A stretch of DNA of 4,285 nucleotides from a virus (lineage: Duplodnaviria > Heunggongvirae > Uroviricota > Caudoviricetes), in the IMG/VR virus record IMGVR_UViG_2728369591_000004, positions 1-4,285 of that record. One strand, given 5' to 3'. A program made the position numbers and the translations under genes. The notes under the pieces are model-generated. The model saw only the letters and a program-made list of their open reading frames with translations. It was not told the origin of the DNA and did no database searches. Positions 1 through 4,285 of this stretch are shown piece by piece. Positions within the stretch are counted from its first letter, which is position 1, and each line of letters starts with the position of its first letter.

Positions 1-46
1 GCACCTCAAAAACACCATCATACACTAAATCAGTAAGTTGGCAGCA

Positions 47-328
47 TCACCCATCCGAGCATCTGCGTTTCTTCGCGATAGAACGCAGTGAGATACCTAT
101 AACAAAGTGAGCAATGATCAGTTCATATTCTTCTGGTTTATATTTACGCAACCGCACCACACAACCGTCTATCATGATCCCTTCATCATCATCACACTGG
201 AGGCGTGACTTTTTACCGTGTGGTAAAAGCCCCTTGAAGCCTGCCGCGATCGGCTGCCAGTCCACTCCGCTGTTATCTGCTGCTGCCCATGCTCCCCAGC
301 GGTCCAAAACCTCGTACATATCACGCAT
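47..328 (-). CDS. Q: Phage antitermination protein Q-like (phage 21/82, QuuD-like family), 93 aa, possibly C-terminally short
   Basis: ATG at 328-326 preceded by GGAGAG with 5-nt spacing; the ORF track's TTG at 343 is probably an artefact. Translation MRDMYEVLDRWGAWAA...IAAGFKGL...SRLQCDDD...GC..RL.K...CSDG matches, from memory, the conserved pattern of DLP12 QuuD (MRDIQMVLERWGAWAA...SIAAGFKGL...CCDDD...CCSDG). Stop TGA at 49-47; QuuD as I recall it is about 127 aa, so this copy may lack about 30 C-terminal residues. Confidence 0.7.
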   Translation of the reverse strand: MRDMYEVLDRWGAWAAADNSGVDWQPIAAGFKGLLPHGKKSRLQCDDDEGIMIDGCVVRLRKYKPEEYELIIAHFVIGISLRSIAKKRRCSDG

Positions 329-345
329 CAAATCTCTCCACAAAA

Positions 346-735
346 TCAGGCCAGCACACCAATTGCCAGCGCGCGATCGATAAATCGAAAAATTAGCTCC
401 AGTTGGGAACCATACTTCTCTTCAAATGCCACAGTGTCCACATGCAACTCGTCGTGATGCTTTCTGCACAAAGGCAATACAAAGAGGTCATGCGCTTTTG
501 TACCCTGGCGACGCGCCTTACGCGTTAACCAGCCTTCTGCTTCCAGCCGTGCGATAGCCGTTCTGACGGTACTCATCCCCGCGCCAATCTGGCGGGCAAT
601 GGTTTCAATTGATGGCCAGCACACACCTTCGTCATTACTGAAATCAGCCAGGCGGGCCATAATTGCCACACTGGATAATTTCATGCCTGACGCTGCGCAA
701 CCATCCCATACATAGCCGGTTAATTTAGTGCTCAT
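346..735 (-). CDS. HTH_36-type DNA-binding protein resembling the N-terminal domain of phage replication initiators (O-like), with an atypical Cys/His-containing C-terminus; possible deletion fusion
   Basis: ATG at 735-733 with AGAGG about 6 nt upstream. Residues about 18-80 (LSSVAIMARLADFSNDEGVCWPSIETIARQIGAGMSTVRTAIARLEAEGWLTRKARRQG) fit the PF13730-like pattern (LaLadhan.dG.cwPS.etLA...G.S.rTV.RAl..LeE.GLl). The C-terminal 45 aa (LPLCRKHHDELH...) do not continue the usual replication-protein pattern. Stop TGA at 348-346, 17 nt before the Q start. Confidence 0.55.
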   Translation of the reverse strand: MSTKLTGYVWDGCAASGMKLSSVAIMARLADFSNDEGVCWPSIETIARQIGAGMSTVRTAIARLEAEGWLTRKARRQGTKAHDLFVLPLCRKHHDELHVDTVAFEEKYGSQLELIFRFIDRALAIGVLA

Positions 736-1083
736 GACCGACCTCTATTTCCCTGAATTTACGACGAAACTGTTCGAGCGGGCTGAAGCACTCATGCTCA
801 TAGCCTTCGCGGAGGTAGATAACCCGTTGTGTTTCCGGCTCCCAACGAATGACTCTGACGGGCACTCCGTAGTGATCTTTGAACCAGCGGTTAACTTCTC
901 GCAAAGGACTGTCTCCTTCTGCCGGTTGAAATCCCCCACAGCCCACTCAGCAAAGCTGTGGGTTACAATTTCCCTGTCACCTGGTACATTCACTGCATAG
1001 CAATACTCCACCTTCGCTTTTCCACCCGGTACAGGAAGCGCAATCAGTTGCGAGTGACGGTAGTGTGTTGTTAAACTGTTCAT
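725..1083 (-). pseudogene. Small phage protein of unknown function, interrupted by a -1 frameshift at a G5 (plus-strand C5) run at 933-937
   Basis: ATG at 1083-1081 overlaps the upstream TGA (ATGA coupling), with GGAGA upstream. The N-terminal 50 codons in this frame look protein-like ([50 protein letters not shown]). After the G5 run, that frame turns Ser-rich and low-complexity, while the -1 frame (725..946) reads [53 protein letters not shown] and ends with TAA overlapping the next gene's start. One extra G would join the two frames into about 120 aa. Confidence 0.4.
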
Positions 1084-1631
1084 GCGTTAGTTTCTCCACA
1101 GTCACGACACGCCACGGCGCCCGGAGCTGCACACTCGCGGGCGTCATTACTTTCTGAAATGCAAAATATTTTGTAGACCAGTGCTGCATGCTCCTGCAGC
1201 TTCGAAATTGAGAGATACAGCTCGTCGTTAATTGCTGTCTTCTCATGCGGTTCCACTACACCGTCTTCAATTGCTGAACGAATCTGTTTTGAATAACTGC
1301 CGATCTGTTCAATGACCTCCAGCAGGCGTTGGTTGATATCGGCGTTGTCCACATCCTCGACATCAGGAAGAGACACAAAGACGCCATTTGCAGACTGCGC
1401 CACAGCGTCAGCAATGAAGTGAGTTCCACCAGCACGTTGCAAAATCATTGCCCATCCCAGCGGGAAAATCTGATCGCCATCGGCACGAAGGCGGTTAAAT
1501 AATGCGTTCTCTGTTACATCCAGCCAGTCAGCAGCTTCAGCGTACCCCCCCGGCAACGCTGCGATAGTTTTTCTGACAGCTTTCACGTACCACTCAGGCT
1601 GTTTTTCTACTTTCCAGTGATGCTTACCCAC
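1080..1631 (-). CDS. Phage CII-like regulatory protein (putative Phage_CP76 / YdaT-type), 183 aa
   Basis: GTG start at 1631-1629 preceded by AGGAGG with 6-nt spacing; it overlaps the cro-like stop by 8 nt. Its position directly downstream of cro matches lambda cII and the Rac/CP-933P ydaT arrangement. The segment [35 protein letters not shown] resembles, from memory, the HTH region of 186-CII/CP76-family proteins. The C-terminus carries a Cys-containing tail ([14 protein letters not shown]). Family assignment is moderate; gene presence is high. Confidence 0.55.
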
Positions 1632-1884
1632 GGTTCACCTCCTGTTCCTGTGGTTTAAACCCATTCTGGTTTTGGCTAGATTGAAAACGTGCCGGATAAA
1701 GAATCTGCATTTCGCTGACTTCACCCTTAAAAAAATTGGCTAATCGTTCTGCAAGCTCGATAGATGGAATCTGCTCCAGCCTCTCAATACGACTCAACGT
1801 CGCTGGATTGACTTGAACACCCGCAGCAACATGCTGCAAAGTGAAACCATGCGCCTTACGCACATTTCGTAATGGTGATTGCAT
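1624..1884 (-). CDS. cro: Cro-like XRE-family HTH transcriptional regulator, 86 aa
   Basis: ATG at 1884-1882 with AGAGGG 3 nt upstream. The segment LRNVRKAHGFTLQHVAAGVQVNPATLSRIERLEQIPSIELAERLANFF is a typical Cro/C1-type HTH. It is divergently transcribed from the CI-like repressor across a 97-bp operator-rich intergenic region. Confidence 0.8.
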   Translation of the reverse strand: MQSPLRNVRKAHGFTLQHVAAGVQVNPATLSRIERLEQIPSIELAERLANFFKGEVSEMQILYPARFQSSQNQNGFKPQEQEVNRG

Positions 1885-1981
1885 ATGCCCTCTAAATATT
1901 GCGCGTTATGCATGTCATTTCACGCAATTATTTTGCGCAAGTTGATTTGCTTATCACGCAATAAAGAAATGTAATAAACGC
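1885..1981. promoter_or_regulatory. OR-like divergent promoter/operator region between cro and cI
   Basis: The 97-bp intergenic region contains 15-bp sites with TTGC-N7-GCAA symmetry: 1899-1913 TTGCGCGTTATGCAT, 1913-1927 TGTCATTTCACGCAA and 1947-1961 TTGCTTATCACGCAA, plus the palindrome TTGCGCAA at 1933-1940. TCACGCAAT occurs at 1920-1928 and 1954-1962. Exact -35/-10 elements were not confidently assigned. Confidence 0.6.
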
Positions 1982-2674
1982 ATGAACATAGGAAACCGAG
2001 TCAGACAACTTCGCCAAGCGAAGAACATGAAAATCGCCGATCTCGCTGAAGCAATAGGAGTAGATGCGGCGAACATCTCGCGCTTAGAAACGGGTAAGCA
2101 AAAACAATTTACCGAACAAACACTGAGTAATATTGCCAAGAGCTTAGGTGTTGATATTGCTGATCTCTTTACCTCTGCCCACAAAAGTAATACTGTATAT
2201 AAAAACAGTAATAATGAGGATGTTGCGCAGGTGAAGGATGTGTTCCGTATTGAAATGCTGGATATCAGTGCCAGTGCGGGAAATGGCCTTATCCAGGGCG
2301 GTGATGTCATTGATGTGATTCATGCCATCGAATACAGAACTGATAATGCTGTATCAATGTTCGGCGGACGACCAGCCAATCACATCAAAGTTATCAACGT
2401 TCGTGGGGACAGTATGTGTCCAACCATTGAGCCAGGAGATCTCATCTTCGTTGATATCAGCATCAATCAGTTTGATGGTGATGGTATATATGTCTTTGGT
2501 TTTGATGACAAAATATACGTTAAAAGACTTCAAATGATTCCTGACAAACTGCTGGTGATTTCTGATAACCAGATTTACCGTGAATGGGGAATTACTAGCG
2601 AAAACGAACACCGATTCATGGTCTTTGGAAAGGTCTTAATCAGTCAGTCGCAAACCCTTAAGAGACATAATTAA
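1982..2674 (+). CDS. cI: Phage CI-like repressor: N-terminal XRE HTH plus C-terminal S24 (LexA-like) autopeptidase domain, 230 aa
   Basis: N-terminus RVRQLRQAKNMKIADLAEAIGVDAANISRLETGKQ is an HTH. The C-terminal domain has the catalytic Ser in GDSM (S144, nt about 2411-2413), Lys in VKRL (K181) and a candidate Ala-Gly cleavage site (A99-G100 in ISASAGNG). The SD before ATG 1982 is weak (aataaacgcATG), so the transcript may be leaderless or short-leader like lambda PRM. Stop TAA at 2672-2674. Confidence 0.9.
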   Translation: MNIGNRVRQLRQAKNMKIADLAEAIGVDAANISRLETGKQKQFTEQTLSNIAKSLGVDIADLFTSAHKSNTVYKNSNNEDVAQVKDVFRIEMLDISASAGNGLIQGGDVIDVIHAIEYRTDNAVSMFGGRPANHIKVINVRGDSMCPTIEPGDLIFVDISINQFDGDGIYVFGFDDKIYVKRLQMIPDKLLVISDNQIYREWGITSENEHRFMVFGKVLISQSQTLKRHN

Positions 2675-2693
2675 CCTCAATATCCCATCCATC

Positions 2694-2716
2694 GGCCACC
2701 TAAAGGTGGCTTTTTA
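2694..2716 (+). terminator. Rho-independent terminator downstream of cI
   Basis: Stem GCCACC (2695-2700), loop TAAA, stem GGTGGC (2705-2710), followed by TTTTT (2711-2715), about 20 nt after the cI stop. Confidence 0.7.
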
Positions 2717-2728
2717 TTACCTATAAAT

Positions 2729-2765
2729 TTGCATATCTCGCAAATATCACTTGCATATCTCGCAA
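2729..2765. promoter_or_regulatory. OL-like operator pair: two direct copies of TTGCATATCTCGCAA
   Basis: Identical 15-mers at 2729-2743 and 2751-2765, 22 bp centre to centre. Each has TTGC-N7-GCAA symmetry and matches the OR site 1947-1961 (TTGCTTATCACGCAA) at 13 of 15 positions. TTGCAT could serve as a -35 and TATCTT (2774-2779) as a weak -10 for rightward transcription. The position after cI parallels lambda OL/PL. Confidence 0.5.
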
Positions 2766-2931
2766 TTTAATTTTATCTTTTGTTCCAGACCAACTACAGG
2801 ATTACAACAAAATCTGGTTGCAACACGGTGCATGTGTCGTAAGCAGTCAGTAAATGTCAAAAACGAACAGGCAGGACGCCCACGAAGTAGCCGCCTGGGG
2901 CATATGAAGTCCAGGATGATTCGTTAGCAAC

Positions 2932-2954
2932 AAAAAAGCGTCCTACAGGACGCT
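2932..2954 (-). terminator. GC-rich hairpin with a U6 tract on the minus strand: intrinsic terminator for the antigen 43 remnant transcript
   Basis: Stem GCGTCC (2938-2943), loop TACA, stem GGACGC (2948-2953); plus-strand A6 at 2932-2937 gives UUUUUU after the hairpin on the minus strand. The stop codon of the minus-strand ORF (2945-2943) lies inside the hairpin. On the plus strand the same hairpin lies directly 5' of the boxA-like element. Confidence 0.5.
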
Positions 2955-2955
2955 T

Positions 2956-2968
2956 AGCTCTTTAACAA
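2956..2968 (+). promoter_or_regulatory. boxA-like antitermination element (GCTCTTTAACAAT)
   Basis: Plus-strand GCTCTTTAACAAT matches the rrn/lambdoid boxA consensus (T/C)GCTCTTTAACAA at 12 of 12 positions after the first base. It sits in the leader between the OL-like operators and the strong RBS/ATG at 3001-3016, where a nutL site is expected. Confidence 0.4.
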
Positions 2969-3000
2969 TCTGGTCCCCATCAACAAGTAACTGATAACTT

Positions 3001-3050
3001 GAGGAGGTGTGAAATGCACAAAACAGAACCAAAAATCGTCGCGCCCGGAT
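3001..3050 (+). other. Orphan translation start: strong RBS plus ATG and 12 codons (MHKTEPKIVAPG) of a truncated first early-left gene, possibly N-like
   Basis: GAGGAGG (3001-3007), 6-nt spacer, ATG 3014-3016. After about 12 codons the plus-strand sequence becomes the antisense of the antigen 43 remnant (junction about 3050); the remaining ORF to 3190 is low-complexity antisense. Identity cannot be determined from 12 residues. Confidence 0.3.
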
Positions 3051-4285
3051 GCCCAGACGGAAGCCGGCACGCACATGTTGTGCACTGCCATGCCCGAACT
3101 TCACATAACCGGCGTTATCCTGGCCGTCATCCAGGGAGAGTCCCTGCCAGGTGTACTGCAGTTGCGGCTCCAGCATCAGATTGTCAGTGATACTGAAGGG
3201 CAGACCGGTTTCCAGTGAGCCCAGCCAGCCCCAGCCCCGGGCGCGGAAGTCGTTATTGTCCGATGACGCTTTCATGCTGTGGCGGGTTCCCTGTGCCACA
3301 ATGTCAGCCCACAGGCCGGAGGACGTGTGTGTCAGATTCAGGTATCCGCCCAGGCTGCCGGCATCATCCCGGACCGTGCCGGCGCGGGAACCGTCATCAT
3401 CCTTAACATCAACGGAAGAATGGCCTGCAGCACCATATACCCCTGTCGTCAGAGACATACCGGCAACCTCTGTTCTCAGCAGGTCACCCTCCAGACGGAC
3501 GAAGCCATAGCTGCCGCTGCTTTCCGGCGTGGCTCCACGGGCAATACCCCCCATTCAGCGTGGTATCCAGTGCGTGACCATGTACAGTCTGGTCGCCGCC
3601 GGCATAAACCACAGTGGTATTTGCCGTTCCTTCAGCAGCCACAATCTGACGACCATTTTTATTGATGGTGGTGCGTACGGCATCTCCGTAGACGGTCTGC
3701 CCTGTATCACCATTTTCTGCATCCGGTCCCCCTTCCGCGCCGGTATTCACAACCGTGTCGGTTGCCATTGCGCCGGATTTGACGGCCTGCCAGCCCTTCT
3801 CATTAATGACGGTACCCGTTGCAATCCCGCCTTCATGTACCCACTGCTCACCGCCGTTCAGAGTGGTATTCACTGCCTGCCCCTGAAGGCTCTGTCCGCC
3901 TCCGGCACTGATAACCGTGTCTGAAACGCTTCCTCCGGCATTCACTCTCTGAAGACCACCACCGGTGACAGTAGTGTTGTTGGCGGTACCGCCATTTTGT
4001 ATCCATTGGCCGCCGGTATTCGCCTCGTTATCCGGCCCATACTCCAGCCCGGTACTGATGGTCATTCCGTTGGCCGTACCGAGAACAATCTGGTTGTCAT
4101 GATTTGTCAGTGTTCCGCCGCTCACGGTTTCTCCCGCCTGTACGACCGTGTCAGCAGCCAGTGCCGGGACTGATGTGACAGCAGCAAGAGACAGCACAAT
4201 CGCCACACCGGCGCATTTTCCCCGTGAGCGGGCCAGTTCGGAAGCCACCACCAGGGTGCCCGTAATGTGATTCCATACCAGCCTG

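Follow-up and report, generated by a model that had tools for sequence, protein, structure and literature searches.

A probable deletion scar joining an SfII-type prophage remnant to an antigen 43 pseudogene at the thrW locus of Escherichia coli, and a structured RNA in the adjoining phage leader

Closest described systems and layout of the locus

The decay of cryptic prophages has been described in E. coli K-12 for e14, CPS-53/KpLE1, Qin, CP4-6 and CP4-44, and the locus analysed here follows the same pattern, in that a lambdoid or SfV-like prophage has been cut down to its immunity region by deletions and insertion sequences (IS) and, at a tRNA integration hotspot, has become fused to the DNA of an adjacent island. 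The locus also shares its yfdN-yfdT and ymfL families with CPS-53 and e14. Unlike the K-12 elements, this locus carries a strain-specific junction between a ydfC-like gene and antigen 43 (Ag43), and its cI, cro and cII genes are still intact. The second described counterpart is the Ag43 gene (flu/agn43) of CP4-44-type islands, with which the locus shares the ESPR, AIDA-type repeats, part of the beta-domain, the GTPase gene and the GATC spacing; however, the copy found here is a pseudogene with residues 257-758 deleted and the last 114 residues of the barrel missing. The third comparison is with lambdoid early-left operons (PL or dicB-type), which are matched by the position on the cI strand downstream of cI, a terminator and duplicated operators, by a first gene of the YdfC family according to its annotation in related phages, and by a boxA in the leader. 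In contrast to such operons, no N-like arginine-rich protein follows, the leader contains an uncatalogued RNA structure and only 12 codons of the first gene are left. The ydfC gene itself is a member of the early-left dicB operon of prophage Qin. Integration at thrW is known for the phages SfI, SfII, SfIV and SfV (PMC3851460).

The whole stretch of DNA analysed, hereafter the window, comprises 4,285 bases (Table 1) and is nearly identical to segments of two complete E. coli genomes, CH4784 (NZ_CM166352.1; a human isolate from Sweden), with one homopolymer indel and one SNP as the differences, and PCN061 (NZ_CP006636.1), which is four SNPs apart. These two strains are the only carriers of the junction at 3050 among 5,426 complete E. 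coli genomes, and a search of metagenome contigs with the 29-mer spanning it gave no match. Since Ag43 genes and lambdoid prophages occur in several copies and are easily misassembled, and CH4784 has a homopolymer difference at 3546, an assembly or scaffolding artefact might be suspected. However, two complete genomes that were sequenced independently show the junction in identical form down to the base, and since the window is a few SNPs off both of them it represents a third observation; the chance of an artefact is thereby close to negligible.

Table 1. Coordinates of the features in the 4,285-base window
Feature	Position	Strand	Remarks
IS1 end	1-50		IS1 truncated at 50/51
Q antiterminator and DUF968 gene fragments	51-505
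Further deletion junction	501-505		5-nt overlap; ~4.2 kb lost, most of the replication/Nin region
cII-like YmfL gene, intact	1080-1631	-	Pfam/PHROG assignments
cro, intact	1624-1884	-	Pfam/PHROG assignments
cI-type repressor gene, intact, 230 aa	1982-2674	+	Pfam HTH_3 and Peptidase_S24; PHROG CI-like repressor
Intrinsic terminator after cI	2694-2711	+	Terminator scan; SfII annotates one at the homologous place
Two identical OL-type operators TTGCATATCTCGCAA	2729-2743, 2751-2765		Candidate PL overlaps both
Structured RNA motif of the early-left leader	2862-2925	+	Alignment and covariation
8-bp GC-rich hairpin	2936-2955		Stop of the minus-strand ORF (2943-2945) lies inside
Exact rrn-type boxA GCTCTTTAACAA	2957-2968	+
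Shine-Dalgarno GAGGAGG, then 12 native codons of the YdfC-like gene	3001-3007, 3014-3049	+
Probable deletion crossover	3050		One T common to phage and Ag43
Chimeric 58-aa ORF	3014-3190	+	12 phage codons and 46 codons of Ag43 antisense
Out-of-context tail, 35 codons and stop	2943-3050	-	Antisense of the phage leader
Ag43 beta-domain fragment, K-12 residues 759-925	3051-3548	-	Last 114 codons gone
Second junction, Ag43 internal deletion of 1,241 nt, out of frame	3545-3548		4-nt TACC microhomology
Ag43 N-terminal fragment, K-12 residues 10-256	3549-4285	-	ESPR signal peptide and first passenger repeats

The phage half of the window is a lambdoid immunity region that is 99% identical to that of SfII, with divergent cI and cro genes, a cII-like activator and operators on both sides of cI. 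Its CI protein retains the HTH and S24 domains and differs from SfII CI solely by V159I. The operator motif TTGCN6CGCAA occurs at 1899, 1947, 2729 and 2751, including the cI/cro intergenic region, and is enriched, with nine matches observed against 1.9 expected. By virtue of these operators and of its position, we read TTGCAT (2751-2756) and TATCTT (2774-2779) as the -35 and -10 elements of a candidate PL; a scan for strict-consensus sigma-70 promoters gave none in 1600-3300 or 2950-4285. The cII-like YmfL gene, cro and cI (1080-2674) have all survived in a prophage of which little else is left; immunity of the SfII type against superinfection may still be provided by the remnant.

At the left edge of the window, the Q/DUF968 fragment (51-505) shares 99.6% identity with another related prophage of CH4784, a full-length one about 90 kb away (L015, 34244-34698), and only 88-92% with other prophages of the family, a pattern that suggests exchange between the two prophages resident in CH4784. 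The left flank of IS1 is a truncated fdeC in CH4784 and a truncated ykgL in PCN061, and the ykg-fdeC segment is oppositely oriented in the two strains, which indicates an IS1-associated inversion or deletion probably later than the junction at 3050.

The junction at 3050 and the undeleted arrays

A sequence-only reading of this DNA had proposed that comparison with intact phages and intact Ag43 genes would define the breakpoint and any microhomology, and base-by-base alignment does so to the nucleotide. Phage homology extends up to 3050 and Ag43 homology starts from 3050/3051, A3049 being specific to the phage and G3051 to Ag43, while T3050 is shared; the GG at 3047-3048 is shared too, and the parental endpoints have one nucleotide in common, or three of four if one mismatch is allowed. 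On the phage side, gap-free matches run from 501 to 3045-3050 in prophages of strains AH65, 2016-17-292 and CH4790, and on the other side intact Ag43 genes match from 3047-3050 onwards in N47, YSP8-1, G3X16-2, CAVP814 and K-12. In the independent PGAP annotation, the Ag43 pseudogene starts from the counterpart of base 3051. The same alignment against intact prophages and Ag43 genes revealed no filler DNA at 3050, and searches for IS ends, att sequence or repeats at this position found none. With few shared bases, no filler, no IS or att sequence and the parental orientation kept, the junction has the features of an illegitimate, microhomology-poor deletion. An integrase- or transposase-mediated, site-specific event might be envisaged instead, as the interval presumed lost contained an att site as well as both integrases, and the vicinity shows IS1 activity. 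However, both endpoints lie inside coding sequences, neither of them at an att core or an IS end, and they have only the single nucleotide in common (three of four with a mismatch), which makes such an origin most improbable.

The phage gene entered at the junction could be traced in its intact form. That the ATG at 3014 is a native phage gene start, as had been assumed from the sequence, is borne out by an intact 68-aa gene (WP_000549623/6) starting MHKTEPKIVAPGY at the same place in the prophages of AH65, 2016-17-292 and CH4790, and likewise in the phages Kati, vB_EcoS-569R4 and SfIV. The intact homologue aligns with phrog_1744 over positions 1-68 of 68 (E = 6e-35), and relatives at 40% identity, which are annotated as YdfC, align from residue 1. 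The assignment of this gene as the first of the early-left operon also held, since it is the first plus-strand ORF past cI, the terminator and the OL-type operators. In the window only residues 1-12 remain, and the truncated product is not itself a YdfC-like member of phrog_1744.

Extant genomes preserve the arrangement from which such a junction could arise. In the intact prophages examined, the int gene adjoins thrW and proA. The Ag43 island has the order HsdRSM, GTPase, Ag43, DUF932 ... CbtA/CbeA ... DUF4942, integrase; in G3X16-2 and NT1N31 it occupies this same region of the chromosome, and a partial, 56-nt copy of thrW lies beside the island integrase. Using the 3' end of phage int joined to this integrase as query, 16 complete E. 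coli genomes were found in which phage int lies about 160 nt from the island integrase. Two of the 16, YSP8-1 and CAVP814, were inspected in detail, and in both the array continues with DUF4942 ... DUF932, an intact Ag43 gene (948 aa) and the GTPase gene in the orientation of the window; in CAVP814 a complete prophage is present on the other side of the array. An arrangement with phage int directly beside DUF4942 was considered and found in none of the 5,426 genomes, the island integrase and the partial thrW lying between the two. NT1N31 offers the closest island context and was rejected as the ancestor, having a different element on the phage side.

Among the sequenced genomes, none has SfII immunity, the ydfC-like gene and the same island allele together in undeleted form. 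The ancestor was therefore modelled as a composite of CH4790, YSP8-1 and CAVP814, because no genome unites the exact phage and island alleles. On this composite, the deletion would comprise 5,009 nt on the phage side (measured in CH4790) and 7,674 nt on the island side (measured in YSP8-1), i.e. about 12.7 kb. The reading we prefer, at a probability of roughly 0.8, is that illegitimate recombination deleted some 12-13 kb in one event from a mobile-element array at the thrW locus and left the junction as its scar; both the single step and the deletion size are what we infer from the composite. According to this model, an SfII/SfIV-type temperate phage would have integrated into the partial thrW copy at the far end of a CP4-6/CP4-44-like island, giving the order cI, PL leader, ydfC-like gene, other early-left genes, phage int, att and island integrase, continuing with DUF4942 ... 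cbtA ... DUF932, Ag43, GTPase and HsdMSR. A deletion almost free of homology, with one shared T, would then have brought codon 13 of the ydfC-like gene up against codon 925 of Ag43, taking out roughly 20 genes, among them both integrases together with the att site, so that the remnants would now be fixed in the chromosome. As the orientation of the flanks equals that of the undeleted array, one deletion suffices.

The undeleted order in extant genomes also supports the earlier proposal that one breakpoint cut both genes, although the loss from Ag43 amounts to 114 codons and not to the roughly 170 first estimated. In the same proposal the loss was confined to the body of the phage gene and the end of Ag43; both gene ends are indeed gone, but so, by the reconstruction, are some 12-13 kb in all, with roughly 20 genes and both integrases. 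Two or more steps, whether separate truncations of phage and Ag43 followed by loss of the DNA in between or an IS-mediated deletion after which the IS disappeared, would fit a locus with repeated local events (the IS1 end at 1-50, the 4.2-kb deletion at 501-505 and the internal deletion of Ag43) and with IS1-associated inversion differences between CH4784 and PCN061. However, filler DNA, an IS end and a repeat are all absent at 3050, the flanks are oriented exactly as in the undeleted array and no intermediate was seen among the 5,426 genomes, so that a stepwise history is unlikely. The single deletion preferred here would make the junction a textbook case of tandem mobile elements decaying at a tRNA hotspot with two pseudogenes left behind. 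As such it is ordinary, routine mobile-element decay of a kind already known, and it can be used as a lineage marker for the CH4784/PCN061 clade.

The Ag43 remnant and the fused reading frames

Ag43 is cut after K-12 residue 925 of 1039, with a loss of 114 C-terminal codons, and it has in addition been interrupted internally, K-12 residues 257-758 being deleted out of frame (1,241 nt when measured against the intact 948-aa allele of YSP8-1). Searched with NF033177, the model for Ag43/Cah family autotransporter adhesins, the window yields two fragments in different frames, one with 483.7 bits over model positions 10-257 and the other with 404.5 bits over positions 668-836 of 948. Neither reaches the curated cut-off of 1200 bits, and a full-length member would have the signal peptide, the passenger and a complete beta-barrel in one frame. 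Judged from these alignments, the remnant is a pseudogene of the Ag43/Cah family and not a member protein, and it is predicted to be dead irrespective of the junction at 3050; the internal deletion may be earlier or later than that junction. The earlier description of this reading frame needs a correction: the frame across the junction is Ag43 up to RAGFRLG, but it is discontinuous with the Ag43 N-terminus owing to the 1,241-nt deletion at 3545-3548. Beside this second junction, at 3546, a run of six C is present in the window and in PCN061 and of seven C in CH4784, a difference that may be either slippage or a homopolymer sequencing error. The seven-C run of CH4784 was considered as a restorer of the Ag43 frame and rejected, five C being needed; six C fails too.

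The genomic context of the remnant remains that of an Ag43 locus. A GTPase (yeeP-like) gene adjoins it upstream in CH4784 and PCN061, and the Ag43 side as a whole keeps synteny with the GTPase and HsdMSR neighbours of the island. Both the start of the gene and its phase-variable promoter fall immediately outside the window; there, CH4784 preserves the three GATC sites of the Dam/OxyR phase-variation region, spaced by 19 nt and 13 nt as in K-12.

Two chimeric reading frames cross the junction. On the plus strand, as predicted from the sequence, the Shine-Dalgarno sequence and ATG (3014-3016) open a frame of 12 phage codons, MHKTEPKIVAPG (3014-3049), which then runs through Ag43 antisense (...APGCPDGSRH) to a stop at 3188-3190, giving 58 aa; a profile search found no family match for this chimera. 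On the minus strand, the predicted exit of the Ag43 frame was confirmed as well: the 203-aa ORF (2943-3554) leaves Ag43 after ...HVRAGFRLG (Gly codon 3051-3053), continues for 35 foreign codons (IRARR...ELSVL), ends ...RAGFRLGIRARRFLV and has its stop within the hairpin at 2936-2955. This hairpin has an 8-bp stem with five GC pairs and a 4-nt loop (-16.2 kcal/mol, z = -3.1), and read on the minus strand (2955-2936) it is followed by TTTTTGTT, so that a GC-rich stem and a U-run, the components of an intrinsic terminator, are both found. It is predicted to be a canonical intrinsic terminator of the minus strand, which in intact phages would serve a convergent gene of the ECs1072 family.

A functional role of the fusion, either as a selected 58-aa chimera or 203-aa minus-strand ORF or as a convergent PL/agn43 antisense switch, could be argued from the strong Shine-Dalgarno and ATG of the plus-strand ORF, the intact GATC triplet for Ag43 phase variation upstream, the SOS-responsive control afforded by an intact cI and the location of a terminator exactly at the end of the minus-strand ORF. 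However, the terminator and the Shine-Dalgarno sequence are inherited from the phage, the junction is rare (two of 5,426 genomes), and the chimeric parts are the antisense of unrelated coding or leader sequence without family match. Moreover, a frameshift separates the minus-strand ORF from the Ag43 start, no Shine-Dalgarno precedes its ATG on reading of the sequence, and a beta-barrel lacking its last 114 residues cannot form. Such a role is thus very unlikely; neither fused reading frame is in all probability a functional gene, nothing suggests selection for the fusion, and in annotation the 58-aa and 203-aa ORFs call for caution as fusion artefacts.

Transcription across the junction can be envisaged from both sides. 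With cI intact, PL should normally be repressed outside the SOS response; upon derepression, PL transcripts would extend over the leader and past the junction, and from there would be antisense to the Ag43 remnant. Such antisense transcription is plausible, and terminator-like sites on the plus strand of the remnant amount to a single weak one (3981-3994), not above chance. The Shine-Dalgarno and ATG would permit translation of the meaningless 58-aa peptide, for which PL would have to be active. In the opposite direction, the phase-variable Ag43 promoter seems intact, and the predicted terminator at 2955-2936 would stop its transcripts.

A structured RNA in the early-left leader

The 64-nt leader segment 2862-2925 is almost invariant after quite different cI genes, namely those of SfII, SfIV, SfV, Citrobacter phiNP, Pantoea AH07 and Yersinia YeP1-3, and at least 120 IMG/VR contigs contain the element. 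In the predicted fold, a closing stem encloses two hairpins, the first of them small and of the GGC/GCC type, with an invariant single strand between the two. Across 78 distinct sequences, compensatory changes are observed in eight of the 17 pairs (131 cells), a level reached by none of 500 shuffles, and register-shift controls collapse; G-U pairs favour the plus strand, i.e. the PL transcript. By these comparative criteria, 2862-2925 as a real structured RNA is well supported. In 88 of 111 loci a cI-like gene precedes the element on the same strand, at a median distance of 100 nt. A consensus-like promoter is present in 62 of 118 loci, the end of its -10 element mostly 17-18 nt before the search pattern, and from this spacing the RNA would start almost at +1. 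A scan of the whole window against Rfam 15 (E <= 1) gave no match, leaving the motif, the hairpin and the boxA uncatalogued, and a literature search with the motif core sequence and for RNA elements of ymfJ/ymfK found nothing relevant. No Rfam family exists for this conserved leader RNA, which stands at the start of the early-left transcript in a large number of temperate enterobacterial phages, e14 of K-12 among them.

The nearest described counterpart is the put RNA of phage HK022, a cis-acting processive antiterminator of about 65-70 nt that is found in N-less phages immediately downstream of the PL start (PMC9378689). The leader motif is similar in size and in its position near the PL start, but put is no more than a lead. 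In contrast to put, which has two tandem stems and two copies, the leader motif has a closing stem with two internal hairpins and one copy per phage, and 2862-2925 has no covariance-model similarity to putL or putR, such similarity being one defining trait of a put-type RNA and terminator read-through dependent on the RNA polymerase beta-prime zinc-binding domain the other. Homology to HK022 put was rejected, a covariance-model search with filters off returning noise only (E > 0.5, with none between nun and cI).

It is conceivable, if rather doubtful, that the leader (2862-2968) carries an undescribed, widespread cis-acting RNA which protects early-left transcripts from termination in SfV/e14-type phages that have no N. 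Once SOS had derepressed PL in the strains with the junction, antisense transcription would then continue processively across the Ag43 remnant and enter its phase-variable promoter. That the RNA acts in antitermination, or affects the Ag43 locus in any way, is speculation on our part. Should the RNA turn out to be a true antiterminator or another regulatory element, it would deserve a study of its own and be of more interest than the junction.

The boxA follows the RNA motif by about 90 nt in 31 of 117 IMG/VR loci and is never on the other strand. Within 2936-2968 of the window, the plus-strand boxA begins one base after the hairpin, an order of hairpin then boxA that we take to be like that of rrn leaders and unlike that of lambda nut sites. 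The e14 copy of the motif in K-12 scores 82.5 bits and is located between the repressor gene ymfK and ymfJ (NC_000913.3, 1,202,104-1,202,186, minus strand; L145, 6105-6187), where the RefSeq record NC_000913.3 annotates no RNA feature. A second, weaker copy of 38.6 bits is present in one IMG/VR contig (L073, 975-1045, minus strand), and a variant with a different 3' half, scoring 32.3 bits, occurs in three contigs (L031, L106 and L113).
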